From Escherichia coli (GTDB taxonomy: Bacteria; Pseudomonadota; Gammaproteobacteria; Enterobacterales; Enterobacteriaceae), in assembly GCF_048403405.1 (NCBI RefSeq), contig NZ_CP183133.1: a stretch of 51,502 nt of DNA. One strand, 5' to 3'. The translations under genes were made by a program, and so were the position numbers. The notes below the pieces were generated by a model, which ran no database searches, was not told the DNA's origin, and was given only the letters and a program-made list of their open reading frames with translations. Below, one piece after another: positions 3,724-19,278 of the stretch. The stretch's first letter is position 1; every line of letters begins with the position of its first letter.

Positions 3724-4626
3724 GTGCACGGCAAGTGAACTCCGGCCCCTGGTCAGTTCTTATCGTCGCCGGATAGCCTCGAAACAGTGCAATGCTGTCC
3801 AGAATACGCGAGACCTGAACGCCTGAAATCCCAAAGGCAACAGTGACCGTCAGGCATTCCTTTGTGAAATCATCGACGCAGGTAAGACACTTGATCCTGC
3901 GACCGGTGGAAAGTGCGTCCATGACGAAATCCATCGACCAGGTCAGATTGGGCGCCGCCGGACGGAGCAGCGGCAGACGTTCTGTTGCCAGCCCTTTACG
4001 ACGTCTTCTGCGTTTTACGCCCAGGCCACTGAGGTGATAAAGCCGGTACACGCGCTTATGATTAACATGAAGCCCTTCACGGCGCAGCAACTGCCAGATA
4101 CGACGGTAGCCAAAACGCCTGCGCTCCAGTGCCAGCTCAGTGATGCGCCCTGATAAATGCGCATCAGCAGCCGGACGGTGAGCCTCATAGCGGCAGGTCG
4201 ACAGGGATAAACCTGTAAGCCTGCAGGCACGACGTTGCGACAGACCCTTAGCCTCGCACATGACTTCCACGGCTTCCCGCTTCTGGTCTGTCGTCAGTAC
4301 TTTCGCCCAAGAGCCACCTGAAGCGCCTCTTTATCCAGCATGGCTTCGGCAAGCAGCTTCTTGAGTCTGGCGTTCTCTTCCTCAAGCGACTTCAGACGCT
4401 TAACTTCAGGCACCTCCATACCGCCATACTTCTTACGCCAGGTGTAAACGTGGCATCGGAAATGGCATGCTTGCGGCAGAGTTCACGGGCGGGTACCCCA
4501 GCTTCGGCTTCGCGGAGATATTGATGATCTGTTCGTCGGAAAAACGCTTCTTCATGGGGATGTCCTCATGTGGCTTATGAAGACATTACTAACATCGGGG
4601 TGTACTAATCAACGGGGAGCAGGTCA
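3724..4626 (-). mobile_element. IS3-family (IS407-group-like) element, left part: IRL, orfA with a 1-nt deletion, 5' portion of orfB; cut by the Tn3-family IR
   Basis: orfA-like translation MKKRFSDEQIINILREAEAG...(frameshift near TFYTWRKKY)...; orfB 5' part MEVMCEAKGLSQRRACRLTGL...TDQGPEFTC; terminal TGACCTGCTCCCC read on the minus strand at 4614-4626. Confidence 0.7.
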
Positions 4627-5300: not shown

Positions 5301-6357
5301 GGCTTTGTTGAATAAATCAGATTTCGGGTAAGTCTCCCCCGTAGCGGGTTGTGTTTTCAGGCAATACGCACGCTTTCAGGCATACCTGCTTTCGTCATTT
5401 TGTTCAGCGCTCGTACCAGGGCCATAGCCTCCGCAACCTGACCATCGTAGTCACGCAGCGTCAGTGAACCCCCGAACAGCTGTTTTACCCGGTACATCGC
5501 CGTTTCCGCTATCGAGCGACGGTTGTAATCTGTTGTCCATTTCCACCGCGCATTACTCCCGGTCATTCGCTGATTCGCAACAGCACGGTTACGGTCTGCA
5601 TATTCACCGGGCCAGTAACCCGCGCCTTTTCGGGGTGGGATAAGCGCGCTGATTTTCTTACGCCGCAGTTCATCGTGACAGAGCCGGGTGTCGTAAGCGC
5701 CGTCTGCCGATGCTGCCCTGATTTTTCTGTGAGTCTGCCGGATAAGACCCGGGAAGGCTTCTGAGTCCGTCACATTGTTCAGCGACAGGTCTGCACAGAT
5801 GATTTCATGTGTGTTGCTGTCAACTGCCAGATGCAGCTTACGCCAGATACGGCGGCGTTCCTGACCATGCTTTTTGACTTTCCACTCGCCTTCACCGAAG
5901 ACCTTCAGCCCGGTGGAATCAATTACCAGGTGTGCGATTTCACCCCGGGTGGGCGTTTTGAAACTGATATTAACCGACTTTGCCCGCCTGCTGACACAGC
6001 TGTAATCCGGGCAGCGTAGCGGAACGTTCATCAGAGAAAAAATGGAATCAATAAAGCCCTGCGCAGCGCGCAGGGTCAGCCTGAATACGCGTTTAATGAC
6101 CAGCACAGTCGTGATGGCAAGGTCAGAATAGCGCTGAGGTCTGCCTCGTGAAGAAGGTGTTGCTGACTCATACCAGGCCTGAATAGCTTCATCATCCAGC
6201 CAGAAAGTTATGGAGCCACGGTTGATGAGGGCTTTATTGTAGGTGGGCCAGTTGGTTATTTTGAACTTTTGCTTTGCCACGGAACGGTCTGCGTTGTCGG
6301 GAAGATGCGTGATCTGATCCTTCAACTCAGCAAAAGTTCGATTTATTCAACAAAGCC
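5301..6357 (-). mobile_element. IS903 (IS5 family), copy 1, 1057 bp
   Basis: 18-bp terminal IRs GGCTTTGTTGAATAAATC at 5301-5318 and inverted at 6340-6357; flanking 9-mers differ. Confidence 0.9.
5357..6280 (-). CDS. tnpA: IS903 transposase (307 aa, GTG start inside the 322-aa ORF)
   Basis: ORF translation ...[43 protein letters not shown]... matches IS903 transposase as I recall it. Confidence 0.85.
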   Translation of the reverse strand: MAKQKFKITNWPTYNKALINRGSITFWLDDEAIQAWYESATPSSRGRPQRYSDLAITTVLVIKRVFRLTLRAAQGFIDSIFSLMNVPLRCPDYSCVSRRAKSVNISFKTPTRGEIAHLVIDSTGLKVFGEGEWKVKKHGQERRRIWRKLHLAVDSNTHEIICADLSLNNVTDSEAFPGLIRQTHRKIRAASADGAYDTRLCHDELRRKKISALIPPRKGAGYWPGEYADRNRAVANQRMTGSNARWKWTTDYNRRSIAETAMYRVKQLFGGSLTLRDYDGQVAEAMALVRALNKMTKAGMPESVRIA

Positions 6358-8920: not shown

Positions 8921-9716
8921 ATATGGGAATCGGCCCACCTTGCCGGGCGCCGGTGCCGTGTGGAAATCCGCCCACCTTGCCGCGCGCCGGTGCCGTGTGG
9001 GAATCCGCCCACCTTGCCGGGCGCCGGTGCTGTGTGGAAATCCGCCCACCTTGCCGCGCGCCGGTGCCGTGTGGGAATCCGCCCACCTTGCCGCGCGCCG
9101 GTGCCGTGTGGGAATCCGCCCACCTTGCCGGGCGCCGGTGCTGTGTGGAAATCCGCCCACCTTACCGGGCGCCGGTGCTGTGTGGAAATCCGCCCATCTT
9201 GCCGGGCGCCGGTGCCGTGTGGGAATCCGCCCACCTTGCCGGGCGCCGGTGCTGTGTGGAAATCCGCCCACCTTACCGGGCGCCGGTGCTGTGTGGAAAT
9301 CCGCCCATCTTGCCGGGCGCCGGTGCCGTGTGGGAATCCGCCCACCTTACCGGGCGCCGGTGCCGTGTGGGAATCCGCCCACCTTACCGGGCGCCGGTGC
9401 CGTGTGGGAATCCGCCCACCTTACCGGGCGCCGGTGCTGTGTGGAAATCCGCCCATCTTGCCGGGCGCCGGTGCCGTGTGGGAATCCGCCCACCTTGCCG
9501 GGCGCCGGTGCTGTGTGGAAATCCGCCCACCTTACCGGGCGCCGGTGCTGTGTGGAAATCCGCCCATCTTGCCGGGCGCCGGTGCCGTGTGGGAATCCGC
9601 CCACCTTACCGGGCGCCGGTGCCGTGTGGGAATCCGCCCACCTTACCGGGCGCCGGTGCCGTGTGGGAATCCGCCCACCTTACCGGGCGCCGGTGCTGTG
9701 TGGAAATCCGCCCATC
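8921..9716. repeat. Tandem array, about 21 copies of a 37-bp GC-rich unit (TGTGGGAATCCGCCCACCTTGCCGGGCGCCGGTGCCG); iteron-like, downstream of the truncated rep gene
   Basis: Motif CCCACCTT recurs at 8934, 8971, 9008, 9045 (period 37); units are contiguous with no spacers; variant positions alternate (G/C, C/T, G/A). Confidence 0.85.
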
Positions 9717-9765
9717 TTCATGACAAAAATTTGTCAAATGACAGGCTCATGTGTGCTGATTTATG

Positions 9766-10864: not shown

Positions 10865-12785
10865 TGTTAAATATGTCGCGGTAGGGATACCCGTTACCGG
10901 ATACCCCCCGCACAGATCCCGGCGTGCGCGATTTACGCACCGGGCTCCTGCCTCGGGTGTCTGGCGGTGAACCGCTCCACAGGCCATGGATGAAGAACCC
11001 GAACCCTTGGTAGCCATGCGGCTGCCAGTTTGTTTGCTTTCGTCCAGGTCGTATCATCCTTCTGGCTCCTGCGCCTGAGCGCCCGGCGCCAGAGGTTTGT
11101 TACGTGTGTCCTGAACTTCTGCATGGTGGGGAAGTTGCCCGGTACCGAGTGATAGTTCAGGTATCCCTGAACCACTCTCCTGAGCCATTTTCCCTGTTCG
11201 GGGATTGAGTAATGCCAGCGCCTTCGCAGACCGTCTTTGATGGCTTTCAGAGTTGCCGTCATCCGATCCCGGCGGGTCTTTCGTATCAGCATGAACCTGC
11301 CGTTGCGATCTTTCCCGCTGATGTGCGTGAACCCGAGGAAGTTGAACGTTTCTGGTTTGCCTTTTCCCCTGATGGCACGGTTTTCGGCAGCGAAGCGGCC
11401 GAACTCCATCAGACGGGTTTTCTCCGGGTGAACCGTGAGTCCGAACTCCCTCAGTCTGCGCTGCATGGCTATACGGAAGCGCCGGGCATCGTATCGTTTG
11501 TCGAACCCGATGACGATGTCATCGGCGTATCTGACCATTACCACATTGCCTGTGGCATAGCGACGTCGCCACTGATGCGCCCACAGATCGAAGACGTAGT
11601 GGAGGTATATGTTTGCCAGCAGCGGTGAGATGACCGCACCCTGTGGGGTGCCTTCCTCCGTTGCTCGCCATTGACCCTCCTCCAACGTCCCGGCTGTGAG
11701 CCACTTACGTATGAGCCTGATTACGCTCCGGTCGCCGATCCGATGCTCTGTGAACCTGATCAGCCATTCGTGGCTCACCCTGTCGAAGAACTGACTGATG
11801 TCGGCATCCAGTACCCAGTTTACGTTAGTGCGTACCAGCCCTGTGGCCAGTGCGTCCAGTGCATCGTGCTGGCTTCGCCCGGGTCTGAACCCGTATGAGA
11901 ACCCCATAAAGTCGTTTTCATAGACTGCGTTCAGGATTTTCACCAGCGCATACTGGACGATCTTGTCCTCCAGCGAGGCGATGCCGAGCGGGCGTTGTTT
12001 TCCATCCGCTTTTGGGATGTAGTGACGCCTGCCGGGCTGCGCCCTGTAGCTGCCCTGATGTAGCCTCCGGTGCAGATCTGTTATGTTGTTCTTCATGTTT
12101 CCGGCGTAGTCCATCCACCTGATGCCATCCACTCCGGCGGCCGCTTTCCTGCTCAGGGAGAGGAATGCGGCTTCCAGTGCTTCGACTGTCAGCAGGTGGA
12201 ACAATGCTGTAAACCGTTCTTTCTTCCGCTGCTTCGCAGCTTCCCGCACGCGTGACAGCCTCTGTGACATGCTTTCCCGGCTCTGTGTCCGGCGCATGTG
12301 TGGCTGTTCCGCGTTCCCCTTGGCCCCGCTCCTTCGCTCCACTGACTCCGCTCCTTTCGGGTTGTTCGCCTGCTTCGCCGCTACTATGAGCGAGTCCGAC
12401 TTCTCCTCTCCGTACATCACCGGCTATGACTCCTCGTCTTCCCGGTGCGGGCCGTCTCCGACACTGGCAGATGGTCAGAGGGGAGATCTCCCGGTTCCCG
12501 CGTAGAGATCGTATTGACATGCCAGGGTCTCAGACCCCGCCGGGTCCATGTGGCACTCGCAGTATCGCACCCTATGATGTTGCCTTCCGTTAACAGTACA
12601 ACGTCGGCACCCGGTAATTTAATATACATTTCGTGGCTCAATGGCTGGCCTGTCAACACCCCTGTCAACGCTTCGCCCCATACCTCGCGGTATGCAACGC
12701 ATGACTCGGGGACCTTGTGGATTGCTGGTCCTTCAATGGTCGGGGACTTTCACCCCTTGATCTCTACCGGTCTCCCGGCGAACAC
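10865..12785 (-). mobile_element. Group II intron (approximate boundaries) carrying an RT/maturase ORF
   Basis: Domain-V-like hairpin GAGCCCGGTGCGTAAATCGCGCACGCCGGGATC (minus strand, plus coords 10915-10947) overlaps the RT stop; about 490 nt of structured sequence lies 5' of the RT start; exact 5'/3' ends not resolved by eye. Confidence 0.5.
10933..12297 (-). CDS. Group II intron reverse transcriptase/maturase
   Basis: ORF translation has RT motifs (…KADGKQRPLGIASLEDKIVQ…GTPQGAVISPLLANIYLH…VRYADDIVIGF…) and a maturase-like C-terminus; start placed at MRRTQSRE (the ORF track extends to 12420). Confidence 0.8.
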   Translation of the reverse strand: MRRTQSRESMSQRLSRVREAAKQRKKERFTALFHLLTVEALEAAFLSLSRKAAAGVDGIRWMDYAGNMKNNITDLHRRLHQGSYRAQPGRRHYIPKADGKQRPLGIASLEDKIVQYALVKILNAVYENDFMGFSYGFRPGRSQHDALDALATGLVRTNVNWVLDADISQFFDRVSHEWLIRFTEHRIGDRSVIRLIRKWLTAGTLEEGQWRATEEGTPQGAVISPLLANIYLHYVFDLWAHQWRRRYATGNVVMVRYADDIVIGFDKRYDARRFRIAMQRRLREFGLTVHPEKTRLMEFGRFAAENRAIRGKGKPETFNFLGFTHISGKDRNGRFMLIRKTRRDRMTATLKAIKDGLRRRWHYSIPEQGKWLRRVVQGYLNYHSVPGNFPTMQKFRTHVTNLWRRALRRRSQKDDTTWTKANKLAAAWLPRVRVLHPWPVERFTARHPRQEPGA

Positions 12786-14609: not shown

Positions 14610-15587
14610 TTATTGACTCAAATTTCTGTCAAGGACTTCGTTGATAGCCTTGTCCAGTTCATCCTGAATCACTTTTGACATACGGCTAAACTCATAAGTC
14701 AGCGTGCGCCCTTTCACACGCTTACGCGCGAACTTGTCCTTTTCTTCAAAAGACCAGAGTGGGGAAACCACTGACTTTTCCTTGGGAGATGGATCTATCA
14801 ATGCCTGAGATGCCTGAGAAATCAGCTTCAGAATACTGGCTTTCTGTTCGTCTTCTGGTCGCTCGCCATCACTCAAAATTGCATCGAGCTGAGCTGATAC
14901 AGACTGAATGAGTTCTTCAGGCGTTAATCCCTTTTCACCGAGTTTTTCATTAACTTCTAAAAGAAGTTTATAATCACTAAACGATAGCTCCGACTGAACC
15001 GGGAACAGAGAAATTAAGTCTTGCGGTACGGCCGCCGCCTGCAGCGCCCTGGTAACTTTAGCCTGAGATAATCCCTCCAGTTCAGCAATTTCCTTTTGAT
15101 TAAATCCGGACTCTTTAAGAGCGATCAATCTCAGACCAATCTCCCGAAGATTATGTTCTTTAGCTGTCTGGATATCTTTAGCCAGTTGGCGAGCTTCATC
15201 AGCTGATAAATGTTCTTCGGTAACCATTACATCAAGGCCTGTACGGACAAAAATTGCTGAGGCTCGCCGTCTTGAACCATCCAGTATCTCAATCCTTTCA
15301 CTTTGCTTAATACCAATACAGGGAAAGAACTGCTGAAACTTAATCGTCTGGATAATGGATTTCAGAGACTCCCTGGTCAGTGCAAGTTGATCTCTTCCAT
15401 TGTTTTCCTGGTTTACGAAGGTCTTACTTTCAACTTCAGATGCAGGCACCCGAACAAACCTGAACGTTACCTTCCTGCCGGTTTTTAAGGTAAATACCTG
15501 ACTTCTACCGGTGTCAGCCATTTCGAGCATTGACGCCTGAGTATTTAACTGTCTGCCGATGGTTTTTCTTTTCTCATTCGACATCAC
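14610..15587 (-). CDS. parB: ParB (P1 ParB-like centromere-binding protein)
   Basis: 325-aa ORF strongly resembles P1 ParB as I recall it (…IEILDGSRRRASAI…KEGLSQAKVTRALQAA…FARKRVKGR…). Confidence 0.9.
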   Translation of the reverse strand: MMSNEKRKTIGRQLNTQASMLEMADTGRSQVFTLKTGRKVTFRFVRVPASEVESKTFVNQENNGRDQLALTRESLKSIIQTIKFQQFFPCIGIKQSERIEILDGSRRRASAIFVRTGLDVMVTEEHLSADEARQLAKDIQTAKEHNLREIGLRLIALKESGFNQKEIAELEGLSQAKVTRALQAAAVPQDLISLFPVQSELSFSDYKLLLEVNEKLGEKGLTPEELIQSVSAQLDAILSDGERPEDEQKASILKLISQASQALIDPSPKEKSVVSPLWSFEEKDKFARKRVKGRTLTYEFSRMSKVIQDELDKAINEVLDRNLSQ

Positions 15588-16789
15588 ATACCTCCGTTAG
15601 TACGAATGAACTCGATGCGATCAAAGACTGCCTTCGCAAAGTCTTCCGCTGCTGATTTTGCGCTTTTTAGTGCCTCTGTACTTCCATCATAGGTTGCTGG
15701 ATTTGCTGAAATAACTGTGTCAAAAGTCTCCCCACAACGTTCGAAACCATCCAGTCTTGGCAGAACCATGTCTAGCATATCGGCACCGAAAACCTCTTTG
15801 GCCTGACTATGGCAAATTTTGTGATCAGACTTGTTCAGGATCTTGGACATGAAGCCGACATTACCGATGAGATTGCAGGTGTGCCCATCCATTTCGATGG
15901 AATCTATGAGGGCAGGGAGGCTGGCCACAAACTTCAGGGAAGAATGAAAATCAACCGTCGCCGGTGGAAGAGGGGTCAACATCAGGTCTGCCGCCCCAAT
16001 GCAGTTTTTCAGGAACGCATCAAGGTGAGGACCACTATCAAGGAAAATAAAGTCGTAGTCATGCTGGAGCTTGTCGATAATGTTCTCTTTAAGCACCGCA
16101 TGAATATTTTTCCCTGGCAGATGTTCTTCACACAATCCCTTCCAGCCTTCAGCAAGGAATGCATCGTCAATGGAAGCGGGGATTACATCAACACCAGGGA
16201 TAATAGACGGTACTATAAAATCGGAAAGTAATTCTTCACGAGACACGTTCTGGAGCATGGCCTGAGCAGCCGTATTTTCAACCAAGCCCACTGAATTCTC
16301 ATGGCTCAGGAACATTGTCAGAGATGCCTGCGGATCGAAATCGATGGCCAGAATACGCAGGTCTTCGAACAGAAGCTGAGGATGAGCTCGAAAAGCATGT
16401 GATAATGAAGCGGTAGAAACTGTCTTGGAACCACCACCTTTAAGATTACATACAAAAATCGTAAAGGCTTTATCGAAGCGATCCCTGTACTTCGGTACTT
16501 TACGATGGTTATACAGATCGATGACATTCTGAATCGTCATCGCGTATTTCATCGTATTACCAGAAGGTTTCTTTTTAAAAATGTAGCCACCGGCTTCCAT
16601 TTCGGACACAGCATACTCAACACTGCCTTTACTGAGCTTAGGCAGCTTATACAGAGCGGCTTTGCTGTATTCCTGATAGAACTCGGTAAGCTTCAATTCC
16701 TCTTTTTGCTGTCGGATACTTTCGCTCAAAGATGTCAGAAGCTTACCTGCACGTGTAGCGACTTTCCGTAACTGCTCAATATTGTCCAT
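15584..16789 (-). CDS. parA: ParA (type Ia partition ATPase with N-terminal HTH extension)
   Basis: 401-aa ORF with deviant Walker A NLKGGGSKT; 4-bp overlap with parB. Confidence 0.9.
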   Translation of the reverse strand: MDNIEQLRKVATRAGKLLTSLSESIRQQKEELKLTEFYQEYSKAALYKLPKLSKGSVEYAVSEMEAGGYIFKKKPSGNTMKYAMTIQNVIDLYNHRKVPKYRDRFDKAFTIFVCNLKGGGSKTVSTASLSHAFRAHPQLLFEDLRILAIDFDPQASLTMFLSHENSVGLVENTAAQAMLQNVSREELLSDFIVPSIIPGVDVIPASIDDAFLAEGWKGLCEEHLPGKNIHAVLKENIIDKLQHDYDFIFLDSGPHLDAFLKNCIGAADLMLTPLPPATVDFHSSLKFVASLPALIDSIEMDGHTCNLIGNVGFMSKILNKSDHKICHSQAKEVFGADMLDMVLPRLDGFERCGETFDTVISANPATYDGSTEALKSAKSAAEDFAKAVFDRIEFIRTNGGM

Positions 16790-17182
16790 TTATCACCTCA
16801 TGACGTTTTTTGTCATTTTGAACAAAAAGTGTCATGTTGCAAGAAAAAAATCATATTGTTTTGATTTCGCTCTCAACAGAAGGGGGATGAAGCTCGACGG
16901 GCGTGCTACTAAATCACACTGCAGCAACACGCAGACGCACTTTTGACCATCAACAGCAACTCATACAAAAGGGCTTTGAGAAAGGTATTCAACTTGCAAG
17001 ACAGGAGAGTCATTCAGAAGGATTCTGATTTTAGTTACGACCAGTGCAATGCTGAGCCTTATGTATCAGCGCTCGCCGCAGCCATGTAACCGAGCGTAGC
17101 GAGCGAACTGGCGAGGAAGCGAAGAGGAACCGTTCCGGCAGATAGCTCTTACGCTCAGCACAAGAAGAGTTTTCCATCCTCT

Positions 17183-17590
17183 GTGGGAAACAGGTCAACT
17201 TTAATGGACGCTCCGGACTATGGGAAACAGGTCAACTTCGCGGACGGCCCGGACTATGGGAAACAGGTCAACTTCACGGGCGGCCGGGAGTGTGGGGAAC
17301 AGGTCAACTTCGCGGACGGCCCGGATTATGGGAAACAGGTCAACTTCGCGGGCGGCCGGGACTGTGGGAAACAGGTCAACTTTGCAGACGGCCCGGACTG
17401 TGGGAAACAGGTCAACTTCGCGGGCGGCCGGGAGTGTGGGGAACAGGTCAACTTCGCGGACGGCCCGGACTAAGGGAAACAGGTCAGCTTCTCGGACGGC
17501 CCGGACTATGGGAAACAGGTCAACTTCTCGGACGGTCGGGAGTGTGGGAAACAGGTCAAGTTAGGCAAGCACTATGGGAAACACAGCAAG
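17183..17590. repeat. Iteron array downstream of repB: about 11 units of about 36 bp with core TGTGGGAAACAGGTCAACTT
   Basis: Core GGGAAACAGGTCAAC recurs at 17185, 17222, 17258, … (period 36-37). Confidence 0.8.
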
Positions 17591-17649
17591 TTCAGTATCC
17601 CCCCATATGTCAGCAACAAACTAAGGGGGGAGGAAATAAAAATTACAGA

Positions 17650-18372
17650 CTATTGTTTTTTATCAAGAAAATTAAACAGCAAGCGACCATCTTCTTCAGT
17701 GGTATATGTTACCTTTAATGGCGTCTTCTCATTAATTTTCTTCAGAGCAGGTTCCAGGAAGGTACGCTTCATTTCAGCAATATTGTTTTTCTGCGAGGCA
17801 GGGAGCATAAACCTTTCACATAACCAGTCATGTGTGGTGATCCAGACACCAGTGCTCCGGAACTGACACAGGCTTTCATAAAGCCGGATGACACGAACAC
17901 TATTAAGCTGGCCACAGTCATAGAGAGAATAGGTAGTGAACTGGGAGGTTAAGCCGACCAGGAATGGCATGACCTTGTAGTTAAATTCAATCTGCCAGGA
18001 ACCCCGGCCTCGCTTCATTCCTGCTTCAGCCAGCCACGGACGTTTAACTTCTTCAAACTCACCTTCTTTTGGATAAAAGGTAACCGTTGATTCGCCCAGA
18101 GCATTTACCCCAGCCTTCACATCACGACTGGCGACAGACGTAGCGACATTGAAGTATTTGACGTAATCGGAAACGCTGATTTTGAAGAGCGGCAATACGT
18201 CAGAGTCATCTTCCTGGCTGTCATTAAAATAGGCCTGCATGAGGCATAACCACAGCACACGTTTTGCCTGAAGAGGCAGGTAATATGCAGCTTCGGTCAA
18301 TTCGTTAGATTGCTTTATACTGGCGCGTTTTTTAAACGTTTTAGTAGCTGGCAAGAGTGCTTGAGTATCCAT
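17650..18372 (-). CDS. repB: Replication initiator RepB (Rep_3 / RepE-like)
   Basis: Translation from MDTQALLPATKTFKKRASIKQSNELTEAAYYLPLQAKRVLWLCL…RLYESLCQFRS… parallels F RepE; start set at the inner ATG (18372) because the upstream in-frame ATG (18516) lies inside operator repeats. Confidence 0.8.
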   Translation of the reverse strand: MDTQALLPATKTFKKRASIKQSNELTEAAYYLPLQAKRVLWLCLMQAYFNDSQEDDSDVLPLFKISVSDYVKYFNVATSVASRDVKAGVNALGESTVTFYPKEGEFEEVKRPWLAEAGMKRGRGSWQIEFNYKVMPFLVGLTSQFTTYSLYDCGQLNSVRVIRLYESLCQFRSTGVWITTHDWLCERFMLPASQKNNIAEMKRTFLEPALKKINEKTPLKVTYTTEEDGRLLFNFLDKKQ

Positions 18373-18720
18373 TTCAATGCCTATGGGTAAATTTTTACCC
18401 ACCCATAATGACAGTGAAAACAGAAATTGCAAGCTATCGCGATACTTATCCACCGGAAAAATCTGCACTTTATCCACAAGTGGATAATTGAGAACTGAAC
18501 TTGACCTCTTTCCCATAGCTTGTTGATGCGTATCCCATAGCTTGTTGACACAAAACCCACTGATACGTGATTAATTTCCCATATTATGTTTACCAGTTGC
18601 CCATACAGGCCCCCTCTCAGGCCGCACTGTACGCGGCTTTCAGGCTCCCTAAAAGATGTAAAATAAAGAAAAAGAATAAAAAAGTACTTTATAAAAATAT
18701 GCCCGTGGATAAGTGGATAA
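18373..18720. promoter_or_regulatory. repB operator / putative oriV
   Basis: Inverted DnaA boxes TTATCCACAAGTGGATAA (18470-18487); two 16-bp direct repeats TCCCATAGCTTGTTGA (18501-18540); AT-rich tract 18640-18700; tandem DnaA boxes GTGGATAAGTGGATAA (18705-18720). Confidence 0.55.
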
Positions 18721-19278
18721 CCCCGAGGGGAGGTGATTTTTCAGGCATTGAGCGTAAGCAGAATTTATAAGTTTTGTTCCCTGGTGCTTCCTCGCTCACT
18801 CGGGGCTTCGCCCTGTCGCTCGACTGCGGCGAGCACTGCTGGCTCGATCATATCCGTGGCCGGAAGATACTACTCCTCCCCCGAGTCGCTCTCCAGAGCC
18901 GGCTACAGCGAGACAACCCGCACGAAGATTTCTATCGTCCCTGCAGACATATTCGAATCGTTTTTATTAACCCTGGCTTCCGTCGTGACAGAACACTACG
19001 TCCTGTAAAAGGGGGACTAAGGCCCCTGAATCACACACCTGAATAATGCGGAGTTTTACGATAATGTCATTGCTGGAAACTTTCCTGACCGCTTCTCAGG
19101 GGGCAACAATCCTGTTCCTTGCCATGCTGATCTACTGGCAAAAGCGATAAATCCAAGCGGGCTGGCCTTTGGCCAGCTTCGCTGTATAAGGGGAAAAATG
19201 CGGCATATCCAGACATTTCACTAGGCAATTTGAATTCAGATATCTATGCTTGGGATCCGGTCAACAGGAGGTAACAAG

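Follow-up and report, generated by a model that had tools for sequence, protein, structure and literature searches.

The P1 origin, oriR, has five origin iterons and tandem DnaA boxes at the outer edge of its AT-rich region, followed by repA, a control iteron array (incA) and the P1-type parA-parB genes; we know of no ssiA-type hairpin in it. Mini-F replicates in priA mutants, so that its ssiA site is probably dispensable. Plasmids of the IncR group are widespread and carry genes for carbapenemases and other resistances. The published accounts of their replicon that we found, PMC9412624 and PMC7707992 among them, present just 'repB and its iterons', the iterons being described as 36 bp long, and among the papers located on pK245 and pGSH500 we found no description of the origin. 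Sites of the ssiA class, the phiX174-type primosome assembly sites that depend on PriA (n′), have a biochemical definition: conversion of single strand to duplex that resists rifampicin and requires PriA, PriB, DnaT, DnaB, DnaC and DnaG, together with stimulation of the PriA ATPase. In F, ssiA has been located upstream of the oriV-2 DnaA boxes (PMC4398462), and Imber et al. (1983), as cited in PMC4627060, used the XhoI site of F to describe the mini-F primosome assembly site.

Here, we analyse a 51,502-bp stretch of DNA (the window) and identify positions 18373-18860 as the probable oriV, or vegetative origin, of an IncR plasmid. We read it as a theta origin of the iteron type that shares the layout of F ori-2, and assign this reading a probability of roughly 0.8. 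The IncR backbone occupies 14.6-20.4 kb of the window in the order parB-parA-iterons-repB-ori-resD. Public records with at least 99% identity over 18373-18700 number 1,471, the matching plasmids in PLSDB are typed IncR, and the gene order retA-umuDC-parBA-repB-resD-vagCD agrees with IncR. Read in the direction of repB, the locus begins with an ssiA-type hairpin, a spacer of about 55 bp, two tandem DnaA boxes, an AT-rich tract and five 22-bp iterons, and continues with a palindromic DnaA-box pair plus one further box, a putative promoter with inverted half-iterons and repB (ATG at 18372); past repB lie a 36-bp × 10 array, a second ssiA-type hairpin on the other strand and parAB. The individual features, by position in the window, are listed below; L008 denotes an 89%-identical IncR variant.

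14610-15587, minus strand: parB, partition gene (Pfam ParB and annotation)
15584-16789, minus strand: parA, partition gene (Pfam HTH_54/AAA_31 and annotation)
17065-17128, plus strand: primosome-assembly-site homologue 2 (site 2), between the 36-bp iteron array and parA (covariance model, 66.6 bits, E 4.6e-14)
17184-17559, plus strand: 36-bp iteron in 10.4 copies, the copy-control/incompatibility array, analogue of incC of F (repeat search)
17650-18372, minus strand: repB, Rep_3-family initiator of 240 amino acids (Pfam Rep3_N and Rep3_C)
18382-18407, no strand assigned: operator-like inverted half-iterons, TATGGG ... CCCATA, overlapping the -10 element just upstream of the ATG at 18372
18405-18432, minus strand: putative repB promoter, -35 TTGCAA (18432-18427), 16-nt spacer, -10 CATTAT (18410-18405), picked by eye and identical in L008
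18446-18454, plus strand: third DnaA-like box, TTATCCACC, matching at 8/9 (box scan) and kept in L008
18470-18487, no strand assigned: inverted (palindromic) DnaA-box pair, TTATCCAC-AA-GTGGATAA (box scan)
18498-18607, minus strand: five origin iterons in 22-bp phase with core TATGGGAAAnAGGTCAA (position weight matrix), inverted with respect to the downstream 36-bp array
18655-18703, no strand assigned: AT-rich tract, candidate DNA-unwinding element (12% GC in 18650-18699); F is AT-rich at the matching position
18704-18720, minus strand: two tandem DnaA boxes (TTATCCACT and TTATCCACG; GTGGATAA twice), in the position that such boxes have at the left edge of F ori-2
18721-18777, no strand assigned: spacer separating the tandem DnaA boxes from the primosome site; its identity is 79% with F and 61% with L008, so that it is less conserved than both neighbours
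18778-18840, minus strand, core 18786-18834: primosome-assembly-site homologue 1 (site 1), an ssiA-type hairpin (covariance model, 59.1 bits, E 3e-12)
19594-20370, minus strand: resD-type tyrosine recombinase, multimer resolution (Pfam Phage_integrase and annotation), flanking the origin as in F

The sites for host DnaA are concentrated in this region. All five copies of the 8-mer TTATCCAC in the window fall within 18446-18720, and the segment 18373-18860 contains five DnaA boxes (at most one mismatch) against the 0.36 expected from the window density. These boxes flank both the iterons and the AT-rich tract, an arrangement for host DnaA that characterizes the Rep_3 origin class. The palindromic pair consists of a perfect 9/9 box, TTATCCACA (18470-18478, plus strand), and an abutting partner, TTATCCACT (18479-18487, minus strand); it is kept at 100% in L008 against a background of 89%, and could form a 7-bp hairpin if single-stranded. 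F has an identical tandem pair, and 18701-18723 as a whole shows 96% identity to F. The original prediction had correctly recognized the inverted pair, the AT-rich tract and the tandem boxes (which it placed at 18705-18720), and had missed only the third box, at 18446-18454, among those upstream of repB.

The five origin iterons match the consensus of the 36-bp repeats, with background tail fractions of 0, 8e-5, 3e-3, 1.4e-4 and 0 in the position weight matrix; a sixth 22-bp-phased position scores as random with the same matrix (tail 0.78). They are 89% conserved in L008 and form a direct, helically phased set between the AT-rich tract and rep, as in Rep_3 origins, where they would serve as binding sites for RepB. 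Within this set, the 16-mer TCCCATAGCTTGTTGA is present in exactly two copies (18511-18526 and 18533-18548). These two copies had been noted as direct repeats overlapping an in-frame ATG and labelled as operator repeats; the repeats are there, but both belong to the five-site, 22-bp-phased set and are thus two of the five origin iterons rather than an operator. The 36-bp array supplies the second iteron cluster by which Rep_3 replicons control copy number, and the 'hypothetical protein' annotated inside it is indicated to be spurious.

The adjacent gene encodes a Rep_3 initiator comprising WH1 and WH2 (Rep3_N, E 1.8e-31; Rep3_C, E 2.4e-13), which shares 32% identity with RepE of F (BLASTP, E 8e-41). 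RefSeq annotates a 288-amino-acid RepB starting at 18516, and both this start and 18372 had been proposed as alternatives. We reject the longer frame because its ATG is the TATGGG core of iteron 1, because RepE residue 10 pairs with its residue 59, where the alignment begins, because Pfam Rep3_N (WH1) begins only at its residue 67, and because in L008 the extension is interrupted by an in-frame stop and the annotated protein has 240 amino acids. The sequence evidence therefore favours 18372, where repB most likely starts, and indicates that the standard 288-amino-acid annotation begins inside an origin iteron. A sigma-70 scan found no repB promoter at its 9/12 threshold; the candidate picked by eye matches at 8/12, under that threshold, and is therefore put forward only as putative. 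The half-iterons at 18382-18407 are weak iteron matches on both strands (tails of about 0.5%, below threshold) that coincide with an inverted repeat, and they may constitute an autoregulatory operator in a position like that of the repE operator of F. Plus-strand open reading frames across 18567-19046 (67-91 amino acids) were also considered and were rejected as coding because alignments with IncR, F and L008 sequences show indels of 1 and 2 nt and none of the records carries an annotation for them.

A covariance model from which all IncR and F sequences were held out gave exactly two matches in the window (66.6 and 59.1 bits), with no further copy above 15 bits, and found the same hairpin pair in F. 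Site 1 folds on the repB-sense (minus) strand and holds a GCGAAGC mini-hairpin; its identity is 98.4% with F and 95% with L008, against 22-79% for the flanks. Site 2 lies on the opposite strand, holds a GCGTAGC mini-hairpin and is nearer to ColE1 ssiA in its central part. It shares 94% identity with F (L006) 5557-5619, between incC and sopA; the IncR variants L008 and L081 are without it. The ColE1-like segment originally noted at 18789-18840 is real, but the second primosome-site homologue, at 17065-17128, had been overlooked. A hairpin located 370-470 bp upstream of rep, on the sense strand, recurs elsewhere among Rep_3 replicons, some of which are 24-31% identical to RepB. When three replicon contexts are compared, homology breaks off within about 10 nt of the outer edge of the hairpin. 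In each of three different rearrangements the hairpin has remained attached to the origin block, on the side of resD in IncR and F and on that of umuC in L008 and L004.

The hairpin belongs to a family with two invariant blocks, GCTCGCCGCAG and GCGAGGAAGC, a GCGNAGC apex and a closing stem that covaries. A pattern scan of a genome collection, in which the two blocks were fixed, returned many chance matches in GC-rich genomes as well as vector contamination; we retained 51 distinct sequences with family-type 3′ flanks, 32 of which were aligned and are mutually related. Compensatory change on both sides is seen at 8 of 14 pairs among these 32 distinct members, from which the structure itself was also derived. 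Doubly changed cells number 50, compared with 17.2 ± 3.5 in shuffles, none of 500 shuffles reaches 50 and slid controls give at most 13; the count covers the family apart from the short-middle subfamilies (L015, L114 and L118; L073, L080 and L099) and L091. RNAalifold independently found the same helices. Wobbles across the family, 14 G-T compared with 1 C-A, identify the folding strand. As DNA, GCGNAGC is an ultra-stable mini-hairpin that occurs in replication origins, and it is much less stable as RNA (PMC13037366). When the IncR, F and ColE1 sites were folded with ViennaRNA DNA parameters, each on both strands, the z-scores ranged from -1.3 to +1.2 and did not discriminate; nearest-neighbour stability was not significant, at z between -0.2 and -1.3. 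This result provides no positive support, and we set it aside because the fold uses sheared G-A pairs and GNA loops that lie outside the energy model. These data indicate a conserved hairpin in one specific DNA strand. By eye, the short-middle subfamilies and L091 show compensatory stems of their own.

Comparison with F ori-2 (oriS/oriV-2, RepFIA replicon) reveals a shared order of elements throughout the replicon. In both, resD is followed by the ssiA hairpin, two tandem DnaA boxes, the AT-rich tract and phased iterons, and these by promoter/operator (putative in IncR), Rep_3 initiator, control iterons, second hairpin and type Ia partition genes. Positions 18669-19066 align to F 4195-3797 with 72% identity (E 1e-61); the homology ends at the boundary between AT-rich tract and iterons, and the hairpin (98.4%) and the DnaA boxes (96%) stand out within it as islands of conservation. 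The hairpin pair of F is convergent, with the same polarity as in IncR. The Rep-specific half, in contrast, is unrelated in sequence: IncR has five 22-bp iterons of the TATGGGAAA type where F has four of the TGTGACAAA type, the control array, 36 bp × 10 in IncR, is represented in F by five short incC iterons, and IncR adds the palindromic DnaA-box pair. The IncR hairpin is also one base shorter than that of F, through which the XhoI site of F is gone. In F, the hairpin homologue lies 54 bp from the ori-2 DnaA boxes, with the XhoI site (4063) inside it and BglII at 4196. We identify the F hairpin with ssiA on the basis of the secondary citations in PMC4398462 and PMC4627060 together with this XhoI/BglII geometry, and, judged by sequence, F rather than ColE1 is the stronger anchor for the identity of the hairpin. 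A literature search on the direction of ori-2 replication returned secondary statements only.

In ColE1 (NC_001371), the counterpart of 18786-18845 is 1360-1300, with 48/61 identities (E 1e-8). Judged from the position of RNAI, the RNA/DNA switch is about 110-160 nt upstream of this match, which falls on the displaced strand, where ssiA of ColE1, an established single-strand initiation site, has been placed (PMC3167613); in ColE1/pBR322 this n′-pas occupies the lagging-strand template some 150 nt from ori, on its downstream side. The resemblance to a ColE1 origin offered in the original prediction is therefore borne out by a significant alignment at the ssiA position, and the suggestion of an n′-pas-type primosome site gains support from membership of the same sequence and structure family, with PriA dependence in IncR proposed by homology to F and ColE1. 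Both IncR sites have the two blocks, the apex and the covarying closing stem in common with ColE1 ssiA, and site 2 additionally has a ColE1-type central sequence; site 1 differs from ColE1 in having GGGC/GCCC in place of the tandem G-A stem and GCACCA in place of the 3′ GCGGAA. The ColE1 folding strand runs 5′ to 3′ away from the origin, whereas those of IncR and F both run toward it. This reversal had escaped the original parallel, and because of it the ColE1 mechanism, lagging-strand priming on the strand that the outgoing leading strand displaces, is not directly transferable. An Rfam scan of 17000-20000 (E ≤ 1) found no RNAI or RNAII and only a chance snoRNA match inside repB; ColE1 itself, as positive control, scored 73.8 bits in the RNAI scan. 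IncR thus has the hairpin alone in common with ColE1, and not the type of origin.

The likeness drawn here to P1 oriR is one of layout, as that origin has been described. The type-Ia-style partition genes of IncR encode ParA and ParB of the P1 type (Pfam). The P1 origin depends on GATC methylation heptamers, and none is evident in the IncR AT-rich tract. Plasmids of the IncN group (pCU1/R46) have long tandem iterons of 36-37 bp with a TGTGGGAA core, as in IncR; the IncR iteron matrix also picks up IncN-type repeats elsewhere in the window, and the repB coding sequence is 75-79% identical to IncN repA over about 90 nt. In 1993, da Silva-Tatley and Steyn reportedly described a Klebsiella replicon (pGSH500) as a hybrid of pCU1 and ori-2 features.

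On the model of F, P1 and ColE1, from which we infer each of the following steps, RepB monomers would occupy the five iterons and host DnaA the flanking boxes, and the two proteins would jointly melt the AT-rich tract, after which DnaB would be loaded. Dimers of RepB would repress repB at the inverted half-sites, and the 36-bp array would titrate or handcuff RepB and so set the copy number. Once single-stranded, the 63-nt element at 18778-18840 would fold, in its repB-sense strand, into a long hairpin capped by GCGAAGC and closed by the covarying stem. PriA would recognize this hairpin and assemble a PriA-PriB-DnaT-DnaB/C-DnaG primosome, so that the hairpin may provide, beside the origin, an accessory route to helicase loading and priming that is independent of RNA polymerase. 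The site at 17065-17128 would play the same role on the other strand. The dependence on PriA, the site of melting, the operator and the fork served by each hairpin are all assigned here by analogy.

Other readings of the hairpins have to be weighed against this vegetative role. They might serve conjugative or mobilized transfer instead, whichever strand enters carrying one hairpin that primes its complement. The placement of the two sites on opposite strands and the typing of IncR plasmids as mobilizable in PLSDB are consistent with such a role, and a role in conjugal synthesis in the recipient has been proposed for one of the two sites of ColE1, while other ssi signals of F lie near oriT. In several Rep_3 replicons, however, the position and polarity of the hairpin are tied to rep, which it precedes by 370-470 bp on the sense strand, and not to any oriT, and the hairpin has remained with the origin block through three rearrangements; we therefore regard transfer in place of vegetative replication as unlikely, although the two roles are not mutually exclusive. 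Still less probable, to the point of being very unlikely, is that the segment is merely carried along without a function in IncR, as a leftover of recombination between IncR and F-like plasmids. Mosaic homology between IncR and F does extend over about 400 bp here, and the hairpin is probably not essential in mini-F. Yet conservation of the hairpin (98% with F, 95% with L008) far exceeds that of the adjacent DNA (22-79%), the homology of the three replicon contexts ends within about 10 nt of its outer edge, a second copy is retained at the matching position in F and IncR, and the pattern of compensatory change in the family speaks for selection on the fold.

That the element works as duplex DNA or as RNA, for instance as a site for ResD or a transcription factor, a terminator or a small RNA, has a probability close to negligible. 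It is GC-rich, palindromic and situated between resD and the origin, and covariation taken alone is symmetric with respect to the two strands and to DNA and RNA. The excess of G-T over C-A wobbles (14 to 1) and the alternation of purine-purine G-A/A-G tandems with Watson-Crick pairs, however, matter only for one folded strand, and the GCGNAGC apex is stable as DNA and much less so as RNA (PMC13037366). Moreover, no T-run follows the stem and the scan showed no terminator-like site there, no Rfam family was matched, and single-strand initiation is established for the homologous site in ColE1. With the origin reading retained, a more specific idea concerns the pair as such. Both folding strands point inward, so that each is part of the lagging-strand template for a fork moving into the Rep-bound core, and the pair may form a functional unit that brackets this core of origin, rep and control iterons, serving either PriA restart or the priming of the last Okazaki fragment immediately in front of the Rep/DnaA nucleoprotein barrier, or acting as fixed outward leading-strand starts. 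We consider this idea speculative and rather doubtful.

The original observation is correct and largely ordinary, and its analysis leaves the picture of iteron-plasmid replication unchanged. What the analysis provides is a base-level map of the origin of IncR, together with a covariance model and structure of the ssiA hairpin family that can be used to annotate such sites in plasmids generally. The map divides the origin into a host-factor half, the primosome hairpin and DnaA boxes, which F and IncR have in common almost unchanged, and an initiator-specific half that is private to IncR. If the pair of inward hairpins does act as a unit, Rep_3 plasmids would share a general design feature that has no place in the ColE1 model.

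The 2.1 kb around the origin region occurs at 100% identity in hundreds of plasmids from Klebsiella, E. coli, Enterobacter and Salmonella. Their records are typed as IncR in PLSDB, and the annotated backbone gene order in them is retA, umuDC, parB, parA, repB, resD, vagCD; the studied region is therefore that upstream of the IncR initiator gene. A database search returned 1,471 records at least 99% identical over 18373-18700, and the IncR replicon is nearly clonal. Two IS26 copies (808-1633 and 22675-23494) lie on either side of the backbone segment, and retA/ltrA, a group II intron reverse transcriptase, is at roughly 10933-12420. The 19-bp repeat TGTCATGTTGCAACAAAAAG, present twice directly upstream of parA (16811-16848), is probably the operator of the partition operon. 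A 37-bp repeat with the core CGTGTGGGAATCCGCCCACC, in about 21 copies at 8924-9718, is what remains of an IncN-type iteron array, such as has been reported beside IncR backbones, and scores weakly on the IncR iteron matrix. Citrobacter rodentium pCROD1 carries an IncR replicon remnant (1777-2600) in which an IS66-family element, around 30 bp upstream of the operator, replaces the entire origin and a 1-nt insertion destroys the repB ATG.

The inverted and tandem DnaA boxes of the original prediction were found by sequence scan where it had placed them, together with a third box that it had not listed:

DnaA boxes upstream of repB
18446-18454, third DnaA box, TTATCCACC
18470-18478 (+), DnaA box, TTATCCACA
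18479-18487 (-), DnaA box, TTATCCACT
18704-18720 (-), tandem DnaA boxes, TTATCCAC twice

Across all 51.5 kb, the 8-mers of TTATCCAC occur in these five boxes only, and the window density of boxes with at most one mismatch gives an expectation of 0.36 for the origin stretch. The predicted AT-rich tract is equally evident, with 12% GC over 18650-18699. The inverted boxes form a near-perfect palindrome (18470-18487) that, as a single strand, could fold with a DnaA box in the hairpin stem. It is 100% conserved in the otherwise 89% identical IncR variant L008 of Enterobacter hormaechei and resembles DnaA-dependent ‘ABC primosome’ signals.

A weight matrix of the downstream 36-bp array, made from its eleven cores, had its two top-scoring positions elsewhere at 18498-18519 and 18586-18607, both (-). 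Five successive 22-bp-phased positions fall in the extreme background tail, and the sixth is random; judged by sequence, the five are origin iterons of opposite orientation to those of the control array. Two 16-mers previously described as operator repeats do exist as exact copies (18511-18526 and 18533-18548), but they belong to these iterons and the operator label does not hold. In public records the 36-bp array also appears as a ‘hypothetical protein’ (WP_000339857.1, around 17204-17473 (+)) with the repetitive peptide GKQVNFADGPDY, an annotation that is almost certainly spurious. A promoter-like CTGATA-16-TATTAT (18560-18587 (+)) within the origin iterons, directed at the AT-rich tract and hairpin, could be due to chance, as shuffles yield 1.6 such sites per region.

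RefSeq annotates repB as a 288-residue protein starting at 18516 (17650-18516 (-)), a disfavoured start, its ATG being supplied by TATGGG, the core of iteron 1. Four results point instead to the ATG at 18372 (240 aa), which sequence comparison favours because residue 10 of F RepE (251 aa) aligns with residue 59 of the long open reading frame (residue 11 of the short form), the Pfam WH1 domain starts at residue 67 of the long form, L008 (89% identical upstream, annotated at 240 aa) has a stop codon within the extension, and the extension would be coded by three DnaA boxes and one iteron. Between the DnaA boxes and the ATG, TTGCAA-16-CATTAT is a candidate weak repB promoter, for which a promoter scan made no call. 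The TATGGG/CCCATA inverted pair across its -10 hexamer is a candidate operator by analogy with F, in which the repE operator occupies the same place.

The suspected ColE1 ori resemblance yields a significant alignment: 18786-18845 matches ColE1 1360-1300 (48/61 identities, E 1e-8). RNAI occupies 645-749 in ColE1 (Rfam), placing the RNA/DNA switch near 1200; the match is on the displaced strand, 110-160 nt downstream of the switch. A 101-nt query segment matched at least 5,000 plasmids, many of them non-IncR, including IncFIA plasmids in which repE follows the match at a distance of about 300 bp. Against the F plasmid (NC_002483), 18669-19066 is 72% identical (E 1e-61), with identity varying along the region:

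Identity to F by segment
Beyond hairpin, 22%
Hairpin, 98.4%
Spacer, 79%
Tandem DnaA boxes, 96%
AT tract, 61%
Iterons onward, unrelated

Both the original observation and its reading, an origin with a primosome-site-like segment, are essentially right. The F segment is linked to ssiA by the literature and by restriction sites. PMC4398462 locates ssiA on the upstream side of the oriV-2 DnaA boxes, and Imber, Low and Ray 1983 is the source given in PMC4627060 for a mini-F primosome assembly site. This interval of F contains a single XhoI site, inside the hairpin (4063), 133 bp from a BglII site in the AT tract (4196).

Searching one genome per species for GCTCGCCGCAG-N20-45-GCGAGGAAGC, and discarding GC-rich chance matches, gave an alignment of 32 distinct members. 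Three helices make up their structure: one closes it immediately outside the invariant blocks, a second forms the middle stem, and the third is an apical stem with a G-N-A cap. Standard pairs fill 78.5% of cells (slid-partner control, 16-47%), 8/14 pairs are changed on both sides and 50 cells are doubly changed (shuffles 17.2 ± 3.5, 0/500 reaching 50; slid partners at most 13), figures that come from related sequences gathered with two fixed blocks and from a structure derived from those same sequences. An independent RNAalifold run predicted the same helices. Non-standard positions are tandem G-A/A-G, alternating between subfamilies with Watson–Crick pairs. G-T wobbles exceed C-A pairs by 14 to 1; accordingly, it is the GCTCGCCGCAG...GCGAGGAAGC strand that folds, which in ColE1 is the displaced one. 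Nearest-neighbour folding found nothing special for the hairpin because its apex is GCGNAGC (GCGAAGC in site 1, GCGTAGC in site 2), an ultra-stable DNA mini-hairpin of replication origins (PMC13037366).

In several replicons (RepE-like plasmids, IncR variants and small plasmids with Rep 24-31% identical to RepB) a Rep_3 gene has the hairpin on its sense strand, 370-470 bp upstream. In L008 and an IncFIB(K) plasmid, umuC rather than resD lies past it, and homology stops within about 10 nt of its outer edge, so hairpin and origin move together.

The stretch between incC and sopA of F contains a weaker match to the motif, which, used as a query, found 17068-17130 of the window (94% identity, strand opposite site 1), between the 36-bp array and parA. 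A covariance model of 26 family members, leaving out all IncR and F sequences and run with filters off, recovered this site 2 at 17065-17128 (+) (66.6 bits, E 4.6e-14) and site 1 at 18778-18840 (-) (59.1 bits, E 3e-12), and no further hairpin in the whole window (next best, 15.4 bits). The same model found the corresponding pair in F, at 4026-4089 (+) and 5559-5622 (-), flanking ori-2, repE and incC. The central part of site 2 is nearer to ColE1 ssiA than that of site 1. Site 2 is absent from the Enterobacter IncR variants L008 and L081 and may therefore go with the control iterons or with the partition module. In both variants the origin and hairpin 1 are retained, umuC lies directly past the hairpin, and a small ParA-family gene takes the place of P1-type parAB.

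By analogy with F and other iteron plasmids (reviewed in PMC4980987), RepB monomers would bind the five iterons and DnaA the flanking boxes, followed by melting of the AT tract and DnaB loading; RepB dimers would repress repB, the 36-bp array would limit copy number, and the single-stranded hairpins would be PriA entry points for the primosome. The ColE1 folding strand is directed away from the origin and hence serves the outgoing fork as lagging-strand template, whereas the two folding strands of F, like those of IncR, head into the replicon core. This polarity fits DnaB loaded at site 1 driving a fork toward repB, in agreement with the reported direction of F oriS and unidirectional ori-2 replication; it also fits primers made at that site starting outward leading strands, and hairpins serving forks that reach the Rep/DnaA-bound core. 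Mini-F is not known to need PriA, so the hairpin sites are probably accessory.

The region adds no new mechanism, its elements being of kinds already known. As useful by-products, its analysis corrected the repB start, mapped five iterons, found a second hairpin and gave the ssiA family a structural model. The origin is of the F ori-2 type, bears an ssiA homologue and belongs to a plasmid family that is very common.
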